64,000 nt of DNA. Source: a virus (lineage: Duplodnaviria; Caudoviricetes). The stretch spans positions 32,001 through 96,000 of the IMG/VR virus record IMGVR_UViG_3300028833_000098; one strand, written 5' to 3'. The translations under genes were made by a program, and so were the position numbers. The notes beneath the pieces are model-generated. The model was given only the letters and a program-made list of their open reading frames with translations, made no database searches and had not been told where the DNA came from. Positions 5,831 to 39,977 of the stretch are shown here, piece by piece; the stretch's first letter is position 1; the number at the start of each line of letters is the position of its first letter.

Positions 5831-7234
5831 ATGAACGAAATCAATGTTCGTAATGAAATTCTTGGTTCTATCGATAATGTCAACGATGTTACTATGGAAT
5901 CGACACTTGATGTAATGGGTTCATTGGCTCTTGCTTATGATAAAGCGGCTATGATAACCGAGTATTCAAATACTGAAGATCTTTCGATGTTCTCTATATT
6001 CCAGGAAGCTGAGGTAGCTGAGGCTAAGAAGGAACCTGGTCTGGGAATGAAGATACTGATGTTTATTCCTAATATCCTCAAGAAGATATGGGAATTCCTC
6101 AAGCAGGCATGGAACGGTGAAATTGTTCCTACTGCAAAGAAGGCTGCAAAGGAAGCAGAGAGTCTTTCTGATAAATTCAAAGGTCTTTTCAATAAGATCA
6201 TCGGTAAGGATGAGAGTTGGATAAGAGAGCATGCGAAAGAACTCGGTATAAGTGGTGCTATGCTTGCACTTGTTCTCGGCGTTGCTACATGGTTCAACAA
6301 GGATAACTTGAAGAAGCTCTTCACAGAATTTATTCAGGGTATCAGTGGTTTCTTCAAGAAAACGTCTGATAACTTCAAGCAGTATGGCGTAATATTCGAG
6401 ATGGTCGTATGGAATAAGTTTAAGACAAACATATCTTTCAAGGGCCTGAAGGATGCTATTACATCACTTCCTAAGTTCTTCAAGGATTGTGCAGCGTATC
6501 ATGAAAGATATATAAAGGGTGGTCTTCCTGGTTCAACCAACGGTGAGATTAAACAGATCGACTATAACAGAACTGATATCAGTGCTATGGAAACAGAACT
6601 CAATGCTCTGAATACAACATTCGACCAGATGACGAATGCTGATATCGTAGTCGCTGATACAGTTGAATACACTATTCCACAGGTAATCGACGGCATTACT
6701 GCAGATCTTGATCCTGATTCAGAAGAAGGTAAAGAGCTTATCGCTACAATGGAGAAGACAGCCAATGTAATGAAGCTCACTGATGAACAGATCAATGCTT
6801 TCTCACAGAATTTCCCTGCAAAGAGTAATATACAGAAGATTCTGTCCAAATTTGCTGGTTGGTTCCAGAAGGTTGGTGGCATGATCGCTGGTTGGTTCAG
6901 GTCTCTGAAGAAGATTTGTACCGACTTCGTCCAGAAGATCAAGGATGCTAGAGATATCGACAAGTCTCTCGATTACGGCAAATCTGACAGTGAGGAGCCT
7001 GCTACAAAGGATTCAAATCCTGGTAATGATAAAGCAGCTACTGATGACCTTACTTCGAATCTCGAAGAGGATAGTACTGCAACATACCCTGCCCAGGCTG
7101 ATGGTGCGGAGACACCTGAGGAAACGGGTCTTGAATCCACACAGGAAGAAATTCCTGAGGGTGAAGAAGCTGTTCAGGAGTCTGCAACAGAGGATGAAGC
7201 CGAAGCAGCTATCAATAATCACTGGTATAGATAA
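5831..7234 (+). CDS. inner head protein, paralog family member 2
   Basis: Propeptide ...SLALAYDKA...FSIFQEA and an acidic C-terminus. Confidence 0.65.
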   Translation: MNEINVRNEILGSIDNVNDVTMESTLDVMGSLALAYDKAAMITEYSNTEDLSMFSIFQEAEVAEAKKEPGLGMKILMFIPNILKKIWEFLKQAWNGEIVPTAKKAAKEAESLSDKFKGLFNKIIGKDESWIREHAKELGISGAMLALVLGVATWFNKDNLKKLFTEFIQGISGFFKKTSDNFKQYGVIFEMVVWNKFKTNISFKGLKDAITSLPKFFKDCAAYHERYIKGGLPGSTNGEIKQIDYNRTDISAMETELNALNTTFDQMTNADIVVADTVEYTIPQVIDGITADLDPDSEEGKELIATMEKTANVMKLTDEQINAFSQNFPAKSNIQKILSKFAGWFQKVGGMIAGWFRSLKKICTDFVQKIKDARDIDKSLDYGKSDSEEPATKDSNPGNDKAATDDLTSNLEEDSTATYPAQADGAETPEETGLESTQEEIPEGEEAVQESATEDEAEAAINNHWYR

Positions 7235-7306: not shown

Positions 7307-8515
7307 ATGATTTCAAAAGAAATTATTGATTCAATCGATGAAGTTGTCATCGAATCAAATATCGATGTATTTGAATCATTATGTGCATCATATGACAAAG
7401 CATATGATATTCTTGAATACTGTTCTGATGACGATGTTGATTTCGGCATGTTTTCTATCATTCAGGAGTCAACCATTGAAAAGGGTGATACTGAATCAAA
7501 TGCAGACATTAAGAAGAAAGATAAAAAGCAAGGCAATATTCTTTCCAAGATGCTTGACGCTATTATCAGTTTCTTCAAAATGATCGGTTCAGCAATTGCC
7601 TCTTTCTTCAGGAAAGCAAAGGAAGGCATTTCTGATAAACTCAGAAAACTTTCTAAGAAATCTGATAAAGAATGCAGCGATGTTCAGGATAAGATCGATA
7701 ATGGTCCTGCTGGGGACAAGCTCGACAAGGCAGCTTCTTCTTTTGAAGAAAAAGCTGAAACAAAAGAAGCGCTTACTGATAACAGTGACGAAGAAAAGTC
7801 TGATGATGGTGAAAAGAAGCCTGATAACAAGACAAAGATACTTGTAAAGGAAAAGAAGATCAAAACACATATCAAGTTTGATGCTTGGATAAAATTCCTT
7901 GAATATAGTTATGCATATACAGAGCGTGTCGTTAACAAAGCAACAGTTCTGACAAAGAGTGATGTCAGGTCTGCAATTGTCAATAGACCAACTCGAGCAA
8001 TTCAGAAGAATAATAAGCCTCTCAAAGACGAAATCGAAAAAGTCCAAGGTGGAGTTGCTGATCTGGTAGGTGACATCAAAGGTGGTTCGGATGTTCGCAA
8101 GGCCCGTCTAAAGAAGCAAACACTTTTCTCAAAGTATTGTAAGAAATATCCCGTATCTGAAGTGGCAGATAGCATAGATAAGATAGATGATCTTCTCAAC
8201 AAGAATATCGAATCATCCAAGAATGCTTTGGAGAAATTCAAAAAGGTTAAGGTTGTTCTCGATAAGGGAAATAATAATTCCACATTCAATAAGCTCGTGA
8301 AGGATATTACCAAGATCCATACAGAGCTTGCCAATATCGGTTCAGTAACTCTGGCTCTCACGAAGTATATTGGTCTCGAGCTCGGTCTTTATGATTCTAT
8401 GCTTGCAATCATCATTCCTATGTTCGATAAGGAAATGGCTGATAAGAAGAAAGCCGAAGAGGAAGCAAATCCAACATTAAATGTCAATGTGAGAACCAAA
8501 AACAATGAGGAATAA
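7307..8515 (+). CDS. inner head protein, paralog family member 3
   Basis: Propeptide ...ESLCASYDKA...FSIIQES and SD AAAGGAGG. Confidence 0.65.
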   Translation: MISKEIIDSIDEVVIESNIDVFESLCASYDKAYDILEYCSDDDVDFGMFSIIQESTIEKGDTESNADIKKKDKKQGNILSKMLDAIISFFKMIGSAIASFFRKAKEGISDKLRKLSKKSDKECSDVQDKIDNGPAGDKLDKAASSFEEKAETKEALTDNSDEEKSDDGEKKPDNKTKILVKEKKIKTHIKFDAWIKFLEYSYAYTERVVNKATVLTKSDVRSAIVNRPTRAIQKNNKPLKDEIEKVQGGVADLVGDIKGGSDVRKARLKKQTLFSKYCKKYPVSEVADSIDKIDDLLNKNIESSKNALEKFKKVKVVLDKGNNNSTFNKLVKDITKIHTELANIGSVTLALTKYIGLELGLYDSMLAIIIPMFDKEMADKKKAEEEANPTLNVNVRTKNNEE

Positions 8516-29776: not shown

Positions 29777-29806
29777 TGTATATGCCGGGATATCCCGGCA
29801 TATACA
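29777..29806 (-). terminator. intrinsic terminator hairpin
   Basis: TGTATATGCCGGGA-ta-TCCCGGCATATACA. Confidence 0.75.
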
Positions 29807-29819
29807 AAATAATTATTCA

Positions 29820-30869
29820 TTAGAAATCGAGATCATCACGTTTATTATCGGATGTATCTACTGTTGATGAACTATCAGGAAGATCCTTATCGCCACTATT
29901 TGTAGTGCCGTTATTACCACCTGACTTTGAGGAAGTGTTGGATGTGGATTTTTCATCATCTTCATCATCCTCAGATCCTTTATTTGCGCGTGTATCATAG
30001 TGATCGATCTTGGCTTTAAGATTTTTCATCTTAATATTGTACTTATCGATCATCTTTGTGTATCTATGTTCGATACGTTTCTTGCGCTGGGTTGCGGGAA
30101 TCTTCTTATATTCATCATAAGCTTTCTTTGCAGCTTCATACTCCTTGGAGATCTTCTCATATTGTTCGATCTTCTTATCATATGATCTGGAAAGGCATGC
30201 TGATATAAGTGATATAGGATTCAGCGAAGCAGCTGTTCTGAACACACCATTCAAAATACCGAATACACCTTCGATTACACCGACAACTGTATCTGCTGCT
30301 GCAGTAACAATACCAACTGATGCAGCTTCCTGAGTAATTGCATCGCCTTTTGGAGTAATGGGTTTATTCTTCTTAACAGCAGCTGCTGCCTTCTCATACA
30401 TCTTCAATACTTTCTGATCATAATCTTTTCCGTTTTTAGTTATGAACTCGAAACGAACCTTGTCATCATCAGAAAGATTGGTTGGTTCCTCATATACGAG
30501 ACCATTTTCTGTTGCCTTTGTGTAAGTGAAGATTGTCATCATTACTGATATCATGATGCGTATTCCGTTTGTAAAACATACCGCATATGCAGTATTCTTG
30601 TCATTCGGTTTAGCCATGTATTCACCTATCATTTTCTTCCATATAGGTTTATGCAATGATGCGAACATATCCTTTACACCGGTGATAACTTTTGTTGGTG
30701 CATTTTTAACACCATCACCAAGAGTCTTGACATCTTTTGATATAATATCATAACAAGGATGTTTGGTGATATCACCTTTCATCTTGTATTCATCACCGCT
30801 CTTGTTTTTGTATGTTCTTTTAACATTCTTCAATGTTATCTCAGTATACTTTTTGAACTTTTCATACAT
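29820..30869 (-). CDS. virion protein with coiled coil
   Basis: ITQE|A site, hydrophobic segment and coiled coil. Confidence 0.6.
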   Translation of the reverse strand: MYEKFKKYTEITLKNVKRTYKNKSGDEYKMKGDITKHPCYDIISKDVKTLGDGVKNAPTKVITGVKDMFASLHKPIWKKMIGEYMAKPNDKNTAYAVCFTNGIRIMISVMMTIFTYTKATENGLVYEEPTNLSDDDKVRFEFITKNGKDYDQKVLKMYEKAAAAVKKNKPITPKGDAITQEAASVGIVTAAADTVVGVIEGVFGILNGVFRTAASLNPISLISACLSRSYDKKIEQYEKISKEYEAAKKAYDEYKKIPATQRKKRIEHRYTKMIDKYNIKMKNLKAKIDHYDTRANKGSEDDEDDEKSTSNTSSKSGGNNGTTNSGDKDLPDSSSTVDTSDNKRDDLDF

Positions 30870-30890: not shown

Positions 30891-32606
30891 TCAAGCACCA
30901 AGCATCTTGAATACATCACGAGTCTTGGTACCAACAGTATCAAGTGTTGCAAGCTGTTTGTTTACAGCCGCAAGTGAATGTACATCATAGTCGCTATTCA
31001 TATCAGGAAGGAGAATCTTAATGGATTCACGATCTGTATCAATGATAATGAGTGACATGAGGAACAGTTCACCACAGAACTTCTTTGCTGCAGAAGGTTT
31101 GAGCAGATCAATATCTGTCTGAGCCTTGATGTTATCAACGTCAGTCTGTGTCATTATGATAGAAGCATTAGGGATCATACCATTCTGGAGATCACCTTTA
31201 CCCTGCTTATCCTTAATAAATACTTTGAATAGTGATTTTCCCTGAACAACAGCAGCAGCAGGAGCATCACCCTTCATATGCGCAAGTTCATATAGACGAC
31301 GATACCACTTTCTATTGGGATCACGTGAATCAGCAGCAGTCTGTTTCTTTTCCTTTATACGGAATACGAGATCCTTCAAGAACTTCAGTTCTCCTGCACG
31401 CCATTTAACCTTTCTGGAAATCTTATCCATTTCCTTAAGAGGATACTTGGCAACTTCAGGAAGAATTGAAGACTGTACCATACGAGTATGACACTTAACT
31501 CCGACAACATACTCGATAGGCTGGAGGGAATCATCCTTATTGAGCATATTGAGAGTTACCTTCATCAACAAGGGTTTCATAGTGTTCATCTTTTCACACA
31601 GCTTATCATTTACATATGATATGTTAGTGGTCTTAACACTCTGAAGAGCCTTTGTCTTTTCAAGAGAAAGATTGTCAGCCTTCCACTGGTCAACCTTTGT
31701 CTTTGCTTTAGCCTGTTTGATTCTATCGCCGGTTGTTGCGATGGTTTGGATTGAATTCGCAATATCACCAGGTGCCTTTGCAAGGTTATCGATTCCACTA
31801 GCTATTTGGTTGAATGCCTGTGAACGAGCTACGGGATGAGCCATATCGATTGTTCTTGCATCATGTGCCGATGGTCCTTCCAATCCATGATCAGTTGTAT
31901 AATTCATATATGTCATGAATGCATTTTCAGGACCATTTCCGACATCAACCTGATGACCGTTCAACATATTGAACAGCTGCTGACGTGTACCATATTGGAT
32001 ATCACCATTGGCATCAGTTTGGAATCTCCAAGGTATTTCAGGATCGCCATTGGCATCCAGTACAGGAAGAGGATACTGAGGTACAAGATCATTGACGGGT
32101 GCTTCCTGGAAGTAATGACTGAACTCTGACATTGGTTCATAGTCATATGCTTCATTGATAACCTTGGCATCCTTGTCTTCAATGGACAGAAGATCAAATT
32201 CAACCTTACAGTCCTCATTTATATATTCGGCATGACAAACATCATGCTGGTAAGTTGTATCTGTGTATTCGAGATACTTGTTTGTATTTGTTTTATAATC
32301 AGCAAACTGCATACCGCGTTTTACTGAATCAGCATCAATAACGGGATTAATGCTTATAGCCATCTGGAGATATGTTGCATAAACCTGTTCAAGCAATGAT
32401 ACAGTTGCTGTTGCATAGTCCATTGGAATTGTATTCGATACAAATACAGGAAACTCAAATAGATTTCCCTGTGCAGCTTTGACTATAGAACCTTTACGCT
32501 TGCTCTTTCTGAACTTTGAAGTTGCAGTGTCGACACGGTTTATATAGCCAACAGCTTCATCGTTAGCGGTAGCAAATCTTGATAAAACATCTACATCTTT
32601 TGCCAT
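30891..32606 (-). CDS. conserved-looking virion/head protein
   Basis: 571 aa with a YFQE|A site; SD GAAAGGTAG. Confidence 0.6.
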   Translation of the reverse strand: MAKDVDVLSRFATANDEAVGYINRVDTATSKFRKSKRKGSIVKAAQGNLFEFPVFVSNTIPMDYATATVSLLEQVYATYLQMAISINPVIDADSVKRGMQFADYKTNTNKYLEYTDTTYQHDVCHAEYINEDCKVEFDLLSIEDKDAKVINEAYDYEPMSEFSHYFQEAPVNDLVPQYPLPVLDANGDPEIPWRFQTDANGDIQYGTRQQLFNMLNGHQVDVGNGPENAFMTYMNYTTDHGLEGPSAHDARTIDMAHPVARSQAFNQIASGIDNLAKAPGDIANSIQTIATTGDRIKQAKAKTKVDQWKADNLSLEKTKALQSVKTTNISYVNDKLCEKMNTMKPLLMKVTLNMLNKDDSLQPIEYVVGVKCHTRMVQSSILPEVAKYPLKEMDKISRKVKWRAGELKFLKDLVFRIKEKKQTAADSRDPNRKWYRRLYELAHMKGDAPAAAVVQGKSLFKVFIKDKQGKGDLQNGMIPNASIIMTQTDVDNIKAQTDIDLLKPSAAKKFCGELFLMSLIIIDTDRESIKILLPDMNSDYDVHSLAAVNKQLATLDTVGTKTRDVFKMLGA

Positions 32607-32622
32607 TATATACACTACCTTT

Positions 32623-36100: not shown

Positions 36101-39100
36101 TTATGGTTCATCGGTCGGTTCGGGATCAGGTACAAGTATCAAACCAGGGCCAAGAGTAATTGTAACAGGCGATGTTCCATTGTATTCAATGTTGTTTGTT
36201 CCATCAGTGATAGTGAGGAGTTCTCCACCTCCACCTCCGCCGGCGTAATTTGGTGAGATTTTGAGATTACCCTCTTCATCTATACAGAGTTCACCATTAT
36301 CGGTGACATCCTGATATTTCGATAATCTTACACCAAGAACATTGTTGCTATAAATACGCAAACCTTTTGATCCAGAACCTGTTGAATCGAATTGTTGACG
36401 ACCATTCTCTGTTGTTGAATCATATTCACTGTTCTCATTGACTCTGACACCAAGGAATCCATTTGTATTGAATCTGAGTCCTCCATTGTAATATGGACTG
36501 AATGCCTCATCGAAATCTGGATCTGTTGATTTTGTACCATTTGAATAGTCATATATCTTAACAGATACAGATGGTTTGAATTGTCCAGATGTTGAAGAAG
36601 TTATACCCTGGAACTCATTCAGATTTATATCGAGACCAGGCATGAATGAACCATCTTCTGCAGTTGAGAATTGACGTACATAACATGGATCGCCAGCTTC
36701 ATCAGAAGATATGATACCATATTCTTCTTTGATGAATCTTTGCCATGCTTGAAGAGCTGTCTCACCAGGTCTAATGTATCCATCACCGGTACCATTCAGA
36801 GCGTAATATTTTAATACACCTGAAGCGTCAACTGCATTAACATTTCCATCATGAGTAATATCTAGGGTGCCAAGCAGTTGTGATGTTAAATCAAGTATTG
36901 GTGATATCTCGTAGGTAAGTGTCGACGAATTGTAATGTGCTTCATATGTAACATGGTAATATCTTCCATTATACATATCTTCAGGACGTTCAGTCATATC
37001 GGTATATCTCTTACCATCAACATAGTCTATTCGATGTATATAATTCGGGTCACTATAGAAAATTCCGTTATTAAGATATCCTTGAATTGCCGTTTGTTCA
37101 GCAGCATATACTGCAAGAATTTGGGATGCCTGTACAGCGGTTACTGGTGAATGAAGAAGTGGGAAGTCGACAATTTCAGGAACTCTCCATGTATATGCCG
37201 ACACAACTATCTCCATAGTATCTCCGTTTATTGCTTCAACAACATATACCTTGTTTGTTTCACCAGGATTCGGAAGAGATGCATATGACGGATAGTATTG
37301 ATACATTGGTTCATATGTGGATTCCGATGCATTCCATACATAACGTTTCTTTTTGTCTGCGTCAAAGTAGATTACTTCATTTTCACCATTAACAGGGAAT
37401 GATTCTACACTGGGATATTCCTGTGTTACCCAACCCTTGAAATAGATATGTGGTGCTATTGAATTTTCATCAGCATTCTTTATTTCCAATGGATTGGTAT
37501 ATGTTTTTGATTCCCTGTAGAGCTGTATTCCAACGACATTGTCATTCGAAATACCAACTGCGGCACTACCGAGACGTGGAACAATTTCTCTACTATTGAC
37601 ACGAAGACCTATTGATGAAACATAATCTGATGATGATCCAGGTGTGATGTATCTCAATCCACCATATAACGATCTTGCAATGGTATGTGTGTTTACATCA
37701 GGATCAGAGAAATTCACATCGAATATTGATGGTGTCACGAATCCATAGTTTTTATCAACAACGACATATTGATTTATCTCATAACAGTAATTCTTTTGCG
37801 AAATTCTGTCATAATAGAAACCAAAGTTGGTTGGTGTTATTGGATCAGAATATGTTTCACCATCATATGTCTCATAGAATATATTCTCGTGATAGTAACC
37901 CGGTGTCGCATTGGATATTCCTTCGTATACATTTACACCAAACCTGTTGAACTTGGACATTCTCATTCCAAGGCCCTTGTTTATTGTAAGACCTGGAGTT
38001 ATTTTCAATGCTCCATCCACACCTTCTGTGGTTGTTAGACCTCCACCAAGTTGATTATACCATGGCAATTGTCTAAGTGATTCAATCTTGGATATCTTTA
38101 CTCCAAGTTTATTATCACCTGCATCACCAAGTGAGAAATCATCAACTCTCACATTGATCTTACCACCATCATAGTATCCGGATGCAAGTTTTGCTGAAGC
38201 ATCGTCACCAACATTTGTACCTATCTCAAGGAAGTTACCAACGTTTACGGCGAGACCACCTGATGATGACATATCACCTGATCCATCGATAGGTGTACTC
38301 AAATTATCAGATGTATCATTGTCAGATTTACCCAATAGAGAATTGGTGATAGCCTCTGAATCTTTGATTATCCTTAAACCTGACATGTTGTATGCATTCT
38401 TATCAGAAGCAGACATCTTCTTGAGTAAGTTAATACCAAGAAATGATTCTGTTGTTAACGATTGTGATACCGTTGGTACGGAAACAGGCCAGTTTGTTAT
38501 TGGACTATTACGGTCCGTGAATGAATTGTAAGGTATAACATTCAATGAGAAATCGGGTGCAATAAAAGTACCGTTTGATTTTCTTAAAGTATTATGAGTT
38601 TCGCCGATCGGTGTTACTGTATAATGCTCTTTACTGATAGCTATACTAGGATTCTCAAAACTTGCATTGTTAAATGCATTAAGACCTGATATGTTATCAG
38701 TAACATTGTTTGAATCTATCTTACCATGGATAAGATCTATACCTATCATTGATGATTGAACATCCATAGATGATGTATGTGTATCATAATACTTGAGGCC
38801 CATACCAACATAAGGCTTTATGGTAAAGAACTCAACCGTATATTTAGACCCTTCAACTGATGCGTCGTATACCGTTGTGACTCTGCCTATACAAGACTCC
38901 CTACAAACATAATCAGTATCGAGGTTTTGTTTAAGGGTACCGTCTGCGGTTCTGTAATTTTCATCAGAGAAACTCGTGAGTATCAGATCATTAACTTTGA
39001 AAGTTTGAGCTGTTTTAGCAGTACCAATCTCGTTACCATTGATCTTTATAAGAATATCCTTTGTATCCGATGACTGTTCATCATCTACATATAAAAGACC

Positions 39101-39829
39101 ATCTGCACCCTCACCTGTTGCGCCATATACACCATCGAAGAAGAATACTTCAGGAGCAATTTTTGATTTATCTATGTACAAACCATTCATTGCTTTTGAC
39201 GCACTCTCTTCATACAGTTTTAGAGCGTCTTCACCATTTCTGATGTTTACACCAAGACCTCCACCACGTAAATCTTTTCCGTTAACACTTTCGTCGTATA
39301 TCAACGATGCATCAGTGTAACCAACTACGTTTATAGGTAACATGCTTAAAGCAATAATGTTTTCAGCAGTATCCCAATATGTATAGCCTATATATGATTT
39401 ACGATCACTATTTGAATATGATTTGATATAGAATGGAATGTTTGCATGACCTTTGTCATGTGACCATGATTCCATTTCAAGACTGAGATCAGCAATTGTA
39501 TCAAATAGCATTAATCTCTTGATACCGAACTCCGCAGCAAGTTCATCAATAACCCAATCTTTTATTGTTGAGAACGAGACATTGGTAACATTACCAAGGC
39601 CGACATCAGCTGCTGTTATTACAACAACACCGTCTCTACCATTTACAGAATTAACAATACGAGAAAGTGTGTTGTTAATAGCCTGCCACATCTTTTCGAT
39701 TGTTATGCTAAGAGGTACTCCAGCACTTTCGTCATCAACGGATTTTGTGTTAGTGATAGGGTTTATATCAGATAGAGCAACACCATCACCAACGATTTCT
39801 TCACGTTTTAACTGAATACGATCCTGCAT
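36101..39829 (-). CDS. tail fibre protein containing a split dockerin
   Basis: NSVNGRDGVVVITAADVGLGNV fibre motif and GL-type shaft repeats. Contains dockerin repeat DITHDGNVNAVDASGVLKYYA. Start follows AAAGGAGTG. Confidence 0.7.
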   Translation of the reverse strand: MQDRIQLKREEIVGDGVALSDINPITNTKSVDDESAGVPLSITIEKMWQAINNTLSRIVNSVNGRDGVVVITAADVGLGNVTNVSFSTIKDWVIDELAAEFGIKRLMLFDTIADLSLEMESWSHDKGHANIPFYIKSYSNSDRKSYIGYTYWDTAENIIALSMLPINVVGYTDASLIYDESVNGKDLRGGGLGVNIRNGEDALKLYEESASKAMNGLYIDKSKIAPEVFFFDGVYGATGEGADGLLYVDDEQSSDTKDILIKINGNEIGTAKTAQTFKVNDLILTSFSDENYRTADGTLKQNLDTDYVCRESCIGRVTTVYDASVEGSKYTVEFFTIKPYVGMGLKYYDTHTSSMDVQSSMIGIDLIHGKIDSNNVTDNISGLNAFNNASFENPSIAISKEHYTVTPIGETHNTLRKSNGTFIAPDFSLNVIPYNSFTDRNSPITNWPVSVPTVSQSLTTESFLGINLLKKMSASDKNAYNMSGLRIIKDSEAITNSLLGKSDNDTSDNLSTPIDGSGDMSSSGGLAVNVGNFLEIGTNVGDDASAKLASGYYDGGKINVRVDDFSLGDAGDNKLGVKISKIESLRQLPWYNQLGGGLTTTEGVDGALKITPGLTINKGLGMRMSKFNRFGVNVYEGISNATPGYYHENIFYETYDGETYSDPITPTNFGFYYDRISQKNYCYEINQYVVVDKNYGFVTPSIFDVNFSDPDVNTHTIARSLYGGLRYITPGSSSDYVSSIGLRVNSREIVPRLGSAAVGISNDNVVGIQLYRESKTYTNPLEIKNADENSIAPHIYFKGWVTQEYPSVESFPVNGENEVIYFDADKKKRYVWNASESTYEPMYQYYPSYASLPNPGETNKVYVVEAINGDTMEIVVSAYTWRVPEIVDFPLLHSPVTAVQASQILAVYAAEQTAIQGYLNNGIFYSDPNYIHRIDYVDGKRYTDMTERPEDMYNGRYYHVTYEAHYNSSTLTYEISPILDLTSQLLGTLDITHDGNVNAVDASGVLKYYALNGTGDGYIRPGETALQAWQRFIKEEYGIISSDEAGDPCYVRQFSTAEDGSFMPGLDINLNEFQGITSSTSGQFKPSVSVKIYDYSNGTKSTDPDFDEAFSPYYNGGLRFNTNGFLGVRVNENSEYDSTTENGRQQFDSTGSGSKGLRIYSNNVLGVRLSKYQDVTDNGELCIDEEGNLKISPNYAGGGGGGELLTITDGTNNIEYNGTSPVTITLGPGLILVPDPEPTDEP

Positions 39830-39977
39830 TATTTTCACTCCTTTATGAAATAAATAATTATGGTTGATATAATTCTCGACCAAACCATAATGTATGTTTT
39901 AACCATTTACAGGTAAACTTACCTCGAGGTTTCTTATACATATATAATACAAATGATTTTTGATAGGAGGCATTTTT

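Follow-up and report, generated by a model that had tools for sequence, protein, structure and literature searches.

The 64,000-nucleotide window analysed here, bases 32001-96000 of the 109.7-kb linear IMG/VR record IMGVR_UViG_3300028833_000098, encodes a tail-fibre-like protein that carries a dockerin-derived module; comparison with known dockerins confirms the derivation, and also that the first calcium loop has been lost and a long insert now separates the two repeats. The module is of the Ruminococcus flavefaciens type, an assignment supported by sequence and by a predicted structure, with the group-4 dockerin of ScaH as its best match. CheckV places the record at 41% completeness, which implies a jumbo phage genome of about 270 kb; the gene product is proposed, from its sequence and gene context, to be a long tail fibre of this phage located in the virion.

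A dockerin split by an insert

The earlier note on this DNA, made from the letters alone, had recognised an intact calcium loop with its helix and, upstream, the matching first helix with a degenerated loop; both motifs lie where it placed them (LDITHDGNVNAVDASGVLKYYALNGTG at 36785-36865 and PVTAVQASQILAVYAAEQT at 37091-37147), and both readings are borne out. In repeat 2 the ligand and core positions are conserved, and ligand positions 1, 3, 5, 9 and 12 are occupied by D1008, T1010, D1012, N1016 and D1019, which makes the loop a candidate calcium site. In repeat 1 the helix PVTAVQASQILAVYAAEQT lines up with the intact first loops of relatives, DFDNDGKVDGTE and DVNNDGQIDSTD, with DLDHDGNVDATE in the IMG/VR copy L177; relative to homologs P0006, P0012, P0023 and P0026 a 16-residue deletion has removed the loop and kept the helix. 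Two tandem F-hands, each with a 12-residue calcium loop and its helix, are found in relatives such as L177; the phage module has repeat 2 intact and the loop of repeat 1 gone. The earlier note also put the module near the C-terminus of the fibre, which needs correction, as about 200 residues of fibre repeats follow it.

The Pfam family Dockerin_1 (PF00404), with a gathering cut-off of 22.9 bits, matches only over positions 29-55 of its 57-position profile. The whole protein reaches 12.5 bits (E 0.17), a piece of 167 amino acids (aa) 16.6 bits and the excised repeat of 50 aa 29.1 bits (E 1e-6), so that the profile match expected in the earlier note appears with the excised segment. Of the relatives, P0023 scores 27.8 bits and the others fall under the cut-off. 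When the 186-aa module was compared by phmmer with 1.84 billion representative proteins, 64 of them matched, five being fibre relatives; 56 of the 59 others contain Dockerin_1, and usually both of their repeats match the single repeat of the phage, with the consensus LGDVNNDGxINAVDASxVLxYYAxxST ... ADVNxDGxINAVDASxILSYYAYxST. Among PDB sequences, the dockerin of R. flavefaciens ScaH (8AJY) matches best, and further dockerins rank behind it.

The AlphaFold2 model of residues 890-1075, built from nine sequences, has a predicted local distance difference test score (pLDDT) of 77.6 and a predicted template modelling score (pTM) of 0.69; along the chain helix 1 and the β-stranded insert come first, then a short helix and the loop, and finally helices 2 and 3. 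Structural matching with VIA-align places 8AJY first both for this model and for that of a two-loop relative, and the next nine to twelve matches are all dockerins. A Foldseek search of the module against the PDB returned nothing at E ≤ 0.001 and listed 8ajy_B only at rank 40, because the insert interrupts contiguous alignment. The model helix H154-166, which corresponds to helix 3, falls within the range aligned to 8ajy, and the model shares 36% identity over 45 residues with 9gvb_C. In the model the halves form the compact three-helix fold of a dockerin, and the retained helix 1 is predicted to pack as it does in real dockerins, as the earlier note had supposed.

The gene itself lies in a stop-free reading frame (36101..39883, minus strand) and starts at the ATG behind AAAGGAG, with the opening MQDRIQLK common to all homologs; residue numbers follow those of P0001, which include 18 extra N-terminal residues. 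The N-terminus of the fibre is strongly conserved, and the body contains GGLxVNVG, GYLGVRVN and NVLGVQL repeats; such fibre-like motifs run up to the C-terminus. Matches to the PHROG category 'minor tail protein' are weak (aa 63-104, E 2e-4), a tblastn search of the fibre against 50,697 GenBank phage records gave no match, and phmmer with the whole protein against the PDB gave nothing useful. The gene is surrounded by structural genes, for a tape-measure protein and a virion protein, in a neighbourhood shared by the fibre relatives, and the record also encodes a capsid-like protein, RusA, an RNA-polymerase beta-like subunit and topoisomerase II. The M23 and endolysin-like domains of the tape-measure protein are consistent with a phage that crosses a thick Gram-positive wall.

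Table 1. Positions of the dockerin module, of other features of the window, and of dockerin fusions in other sequences (the last two rows are numbered in their own contigs).
Feature	Position	Strand	Remarks
Split dockerin module (aa 905-1060)	36704..37171	-	order: helix 1, β-rich insert, calcium loop, helix 2, helix 3
Dockerin repeat 1 remnant (aa 913-931), helix 1 PVTAVQASQILAVYAAEQT	37091..37147	-	helix retained, calcium loop deleted
Inter-repeat insert, ~69 aa	36884..37090	-	Tyr-rich; β-stranded in the model
Intact dockerin repeat 2 LDITHDGNVNAVDASGVLKYYALNGTG (aa 1007-1033)	36785..36865	-	calcium loop and helix
Candidate calcium loop of repeat 2, D1008-D1019	36827-36862	-	followed by helix AVDASGVLKYYA
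Helix 3 ALQAWQRFIKEEY	36719..36757	-	matches C-terminal helix of group-4-type dockerins; W1047 invariant
Tail-fibre-like gene	36101..39829	-	1242 aa; ATG 39829; ribosome-binding site AAAGGAG
Tape-measure protein, 2702 aa	19684-27792	+	M23 metallopeptidase and endolysin-like domains near C-terminus
Virion protein	30891-32615		near the fibre gene
Protospacer of G014 spacer 9	30017..30051	-	32/35; outside the fibre gene
Dit-dockerin fusions, IMG/VR contigs	L166:5563-6261, L173:5281-6381, L165, L171, L172
Dit-dockerin fusions, Ruminococcus genomes	L199-L202

The fibre family, the probable host genus and its dockerins

Homologs of the fibre number eight in protein collections, to which the IMG/VR copies L177, L181 and L182 are added. 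The distant homologs, 28-31% identical in the C-terminal part, have an intact first loop, the same long insert and a second loop; the ancestral state is therefore a complete two-loop dockerin with an insert of about 70-80 aa, from which the lineage of this phage and P0003 later lost loop 1. The dockerin has thus long been present and conserved in these fibres. The earlier note spoke of a captured dockerin: the module is a genuine dockerin derivative, whereas recent capture from a host is rejected, because relatives this distant already have it with the same insert.

The module is also the most divergent segment of the fibre, with 55% identity to P0003 (41% for repeat 2 alone) against 66-93% elsewhere, and 33% identity to P0004 against 38-74% elsewhere. 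Within it D1008, G1013, A1017, D1019, A1020, S1021, L1024 and Y1027 are invariant in the first five homologs, and D1008, G1013, D1019, S1021, L1024 and Y1027 (D1, G6, D12, S14, L17 and Y20 of the repeat) in all nine, while the classical recognition positions 10/11, 15, 18 and 21-24 vary freely; fast divergence together with invariant ligand and core residues and variable recognition positions is the pattern expected of a specificity determinant.

To place the module among cellular dockerins, back-translated patterns of its nearest dockerins were scanned in 185,579 species genomes, which gave 305 confirmed stretches. Among the best 80 of these (78 distinct loci), all but two belong to R. flavefaciens strains or rumen Ruminococcus metagenome-assembled genomes, although the ranking by likeness to an R. 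flavefaciens-like query shows affinity rather than exclusivity; the exceptions are one Oscillospiraceae and one Bacillota metagenome-assembled genome. The Ruminococcus character read by the earlier note thus agrees with the nearest cellular dockerins as well as with the ScaH dockerin as best match in both sequence and structure. The nearest cellular dockerins are internally symmetric and themselves match the ScaH dockerin best (E 8e-13), so that they fit group 4 (Rincon et al., PMC2930009); assignment to group 1 is rejected, as its hallmarks VxIMQxxxNP and ALxIQKxxL are absent (PMC2930009). The phage module lacks the symmetry and the Gly-Arg pair of group 4a: its first half is asymmetric and its loop positions 10/11 are Ala-Val.

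Several known dockerins resemble the module in part. It shares with the group-4 (type III) ScaH dockerin the AVDAS..L..YA helix and a third helix, but differs in having one calcium loop, an insert of about 69 aa in place of a short linker, and Ala-Val for Gly-Arg; group-4 dockerins are also parts of secreted bacterial proteins, whereas the phage module sits in a fibre. The truncated group-2 dockerins of R. flavefaciens (PDB 9GVB), whose relationship is to the second, C-terminal half of the group-4 type, likewise have a single calcium-binding repeat, which in them can be functional: these natural single-loop forms bind ScaE; however, they are about 40 aa long, have no partner helix and bind as two copies per cohesin, while the phage module has helix 1 and the insert (PMC12270676). 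Insertions occur as well in the ScaB and CttA dockerins, and the X-module-dockerin (XDoc) of CttA from strain FD-1 binds ScaE (PMC5301203); these XDoc units (PDB 4IU2) anchor the cellulosome to ScaE, but the phage module has no X module, its insert differs in place and fold, and its context is that of a phage.

The host is very likely a Ruminococcus of the genus of R. flavefaciens, as judged from clustered regularly interspaced short palindromic repeats (CRISPR) and translation signals. DNA searches with the 110-kb record covered 121-161 genomes from the GTDB genus to which R. flavefaciens YL228 belongs; with two candidates per genome scored, at least two spacers match, which answers the earlier note's suggestion to predict the host from spacers. 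In genome G014 the ninth spacer of a 66-repeat array with a 32-nucleotide (nt) repeat matches the protospacer in Table 1 (E 3.5e-8, blastn-short), and none of the remaining spacers of its 65 matches more than 15 nt; the array of G050 has repeats of another type, and its spacer 4 agrees with bases 6045-6078 of the record at 31 of 34 positions, 29 of them contiguous (E 9e-12). Two independent arrays in different genomes of one genus point to a Ruminococcus host. ScaE orthologues are encoded in both genomes. The sca cluster of G014 is complete and comprises the cohesins of ScaC, ScaA and ScaB, a CttA-like XDoc, and ScaE, whose anchor is NSPKTG; a host lacking cohesins, which the earlier note had named as telling against its reading, is not what the spacers indicate. 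Strong AGGAGG-type Shine-Dalgarno sites precede 42 of 104 open reading frames (ORFs) against a background of 2.4%, a usage that fits Bacillota and not Bacteroidota; a Bacteroidota host, as for other rumen megaphages, is rejected on this usage and on the CRISPR links. DNA of the fibre gene is present in sheep, cattle and goat gut metagenomes from eight studies. No transfer RNAs (tRNAs) were found in the record, and these give no host clue.

The dockerins of the CRISPR-linked host genome come close to that of the phage. The best match to repeat 2 in G014 is the C-terminal dockerin of a scaffoldin-like protein with two cohesins and a dockerin (Coh-Coh-Doc), in which host LGDVNNDGNVNAVDASQVLKYYAKLSTGG and phage LGTLDITHDGNVNAVDASGVLKYYALNGTG are identical at 16 of 17 consecutive residues (DGNVNAVDAS.VLKYYA). 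This dockerin and that of the CttA-like XDoc adjoining ScaE (L130:2464-3618, minus strand; Ala-Ala and Ala-Val in the latter) have Ala-Val or Ala-Ala at positions 10/11, where the FD-1 dockerins that bind ScaE have Gly-Arg (PMC12270676); the Gly-Arg rule may accordingly be specific to strain FD-1, and the sequences suggest strain-specific codes of ScaE recognition. In DNA, window positions 36821-36863 share 86% identity across 43 nt with dockerin genes from R. flavefaciens 007c (G003:C19:30869-30911), and there are similar DNA matches to the dockerin repeat in MA2007 and G129.

Other stretches of the record also resemble Ruminococcus DNA. A 132-nt stretch outside the window (G000:C1:720-851; L134:720-851) is 89% identical to part of Ruminococcus genome G111 (L137:1501-1632); its minus strand contains a 44-aa acidic ORF, MTKIICQYADDEND..., and neither a tRNA nor an Rfam family was found in it. 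A 523-nt stretch (G000:C1:20848-21370; L135:4848-5370), a gene common to the phage and the host genus, is 71% identical to one in Ruminococcus G147 (L145; E 7e-59). A promoter-like element is repeated in the phage at about 8333-8372, 29796-29835 and 97679-97720 of G000:C1, the last beyond the end of the window. Ruminococcus genomes, at least 17 of them, match it over about 39 nt with roughly 90% identity (an example is G001:C10:193264-193302); it appears to be a host-like regulatory sequence. Short DNA matches to Ruminococcus genomes at L087, L088, L111, L113, L115, L116, L118, L141, L142 and L144 lie outside CRISPR arrays and were taken as chance or gene similarity.

Dockerins in other phage contigs

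Dockerin patterns were scanned across 2.9 million IMG/VR contigs and found at 24 loci, three of which are fibre relatives and six of which encode proteins of 232-366 aa. Five of these six were scanned for domains; in four, an N-terminal domain of the distal tail protein type (Dit; phrog_33, with E as low as 1e-11) is joined to a complete Dockerin_1 at the C-terminus that scores 38-48 bits, and for the Dit-dockerins of such viral contigs in general the scores are 34-48 bits. In L166 and L173, the contigs whose neighbouring genes were scanned, the fusion gene lies between the tape-measure gene and that of the next tail protein; these contigs are about 35-40 kb long, siphovirus-like and unrelated to the jumbo phage. 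About 20 of the 161 Ruminococcus genomes contain full-length homologs with 44-80% identity, presumably within prophages. The fibre and Dit cases together indicate that phages of Ruminococcus have on at least two occasions come to carry dockerins on their adsorption apparatus. A further viral contig (L185:868-6270, IMGVR_UViG_3300028911_000139) encodes an 1800-aa protein with a lysin-like glycoside hydrolase, PG_binding_1, InlB-type repeats and a C-terminal Dockerin_1 domain, which may be a dockerin-targeted lysin or the product of a flanking host gene.

Proposed binding partner and biological meaning

The reading favoured here, which is on balance probable, is that the module projects from the side of the fibre, in its distal quarter, and binds a cohesin of a host surface scaffoldin in a calcium-dependent manner, as the first attachment of the phage; exposure on the virion, calcium binding, cohesin binding, the identity of the cohesin and the role in adsorption are what we infer from the analysis as a whole. 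The jumbo phage would infect cellulosome-producing rumen Ruminococcus of the R. flavefaciens group, with a repeat 2 whose loop and helix are kept intact and host-like, a helix 1 retained as packing partner, and the β subdomain of about 69 residues set between the halves. Fibres of such kind are normally trimers; if this one is trimeric, each would carry three copies of the module, projecting sideways about 200 residues before the C-terminus. Each copy, with calcium, would plug into the socket of a host surface scaffoldin cohesin, either the sortase-anchored ScaE cohesin or another exposed one, in an attachment step that is possibly reversible. Group-4a dockerins of FD-1 bind the sortase-anchored ScaE cohesin, and internal and terminal dockerins of R. 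flavefaciens are equally active (PMC5301203). Among the possible sockets ScaE comes first, because the best structural relative of the module binds it and because it is covalently fixed to the wall, yet that ScaE is itself the bound cohesin is doubtful, since the module has other recognition residues and the closest dockerin of the host lies on a scaffoldin rather than on a proven ScaE binder.

A number of observations weigh against cohesin-mediated attachment. Deletion has removed loop 1 from this phage and from P0003, the loop is degenerate in P0004 and P0005, and an engineered half of the ScaH dockerin does not bind the ScaE cohesin (PMC12270676), so that the function may have been lost; loop position 3 is also non-canonical, with Thr here and Ala in P0003, and the Dockerin_1 score of the whole protein is under the cut-off. 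The Ala-Val pair stands where FD-1 binders have Gly-Arg, which makes ScaE only one candidate socket, and on live cells the ScaE sockets may already be filled by ScaB or CttA. Dockerins borne on leucine-rich repeat proteins, most of which bound none of the cohesins tested (PMC5301203), are common among the nearest sequence neighbours of the module. The module is internal rather than at the fibre tip, and the three mismatches in each spacer indicate that the spacers were taken from relatives of the phage and not from this exact genome.

Some of these points would be explained if the module were a relic, a calcium-stabilised structural knob or folding unit that binds no cohesin, with the receptor read by the insert, by the C-terminal 200 residues or by another fibre. 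The deleted loop, the non-canonical position 3, the low whole-protein score, the internal position and the inactive half ScaH dockerin (PMC12270676) are all in keeping with a relic, as are weak Dockerin_1 matches in 8 of 14 control genomes, non-cellulosomal ones included. A purely structural element should not, however, be the fastest-evolving segment of the fibre and at the same time mimic host dockerins in 16 residues out of 17; helix 1 is retained with dockerin-like packing in the model, and independent phage lineages have complete dockerins on Dit at the tail tip. A relic is accordingly considered unlikely, although it survives better than the other alternatives.

Cohesin binding could also serve something other than reception: virions may be tethered to cellulosomes or scaffoldins that are free or bound to plant fibre, so that the phage waits where its hosts feed, much as Ig (immunoglobulin)-like capsid domains have been proposed to hold phages in mucus. 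The lateral placement of the module suits tethering, and the nearest host dockerin belongs to the scaffoldin-like Coh-Coh-Doc protein, which is not a proven ScaE binder; many scaffoldin cohesins are far from the cell wall (PMC5301203). The present observations fit both tethering and receptor use, but the Dit-borne dockerins stand at the tail tip, the site of first contact with the cell, and the best structural match, the ScaH dockerin, comes from the group that binds cell-anchored ScaE (PMC5301203). Tethering is judged rather less probable than a relic. Least of all is it to be expected that the module binds a phage-encoded partner, such as an accessory protein or another fibre attached in virion assembly: the partner could lie in the remainder of the genome, of which the record is 41%, and many neighbouring genes have no known family, but no cohesin (PF00963) match at E ≤ 10 occurs in the 110-kb record, a fixed contact within the virion should be conserved rather than the most variable part of the fibre, and the module resembles host dockerins.

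The grafting of a binding module onto a phage tail protein is of a known kind; 'evolved' Dit proteins and fibres with carbohydrate-binding modules occur in lactococcal and lactobacillal siphophages, and the dockerin resembles them as a portable binding module within a structural tail protein. These grafts recognise sugars of the cell wall, whereas a dockerin would use the assembly code of the host to engage a protein socket. The dockerin as module type and the implied cohesin receptor were not found described: literature searches combining dockerin with phage, tail, virome, Dit or rumen, whose coverage is incomplete and sparse for subscription journals, returned no account of dockerins on tail proteins or of cohesin-mediated adsorption, in line with the earlier note, which knew of no such mechanism.

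More broadly, and tentatively, phages of cellulosome-bearing Ruminococcus may use host-mimicking dockerins, on jumbo fibres and on the Dit of temperate siphophages, as true receptor-binding modules, with the cohesin-dockerin code, strain by strain for ScaE or other surface cohesins, setting the host range. If this is true, phage pressure would be one driver of the unusual diversification of cohesins and dockerins in R. flavefaciens. If binding is confirmed, the phage would attach by copying the protein-assembly plug of its host instead of recognising a sugar or a porin, and host range would become predictable from dockerin and cohesin sequences; protein engineering would also gain dockerins of natural origin that have inserts and single loops, and phage predation would be tied directly to the cellulosome, the driver of fibre digestion in ruminants.

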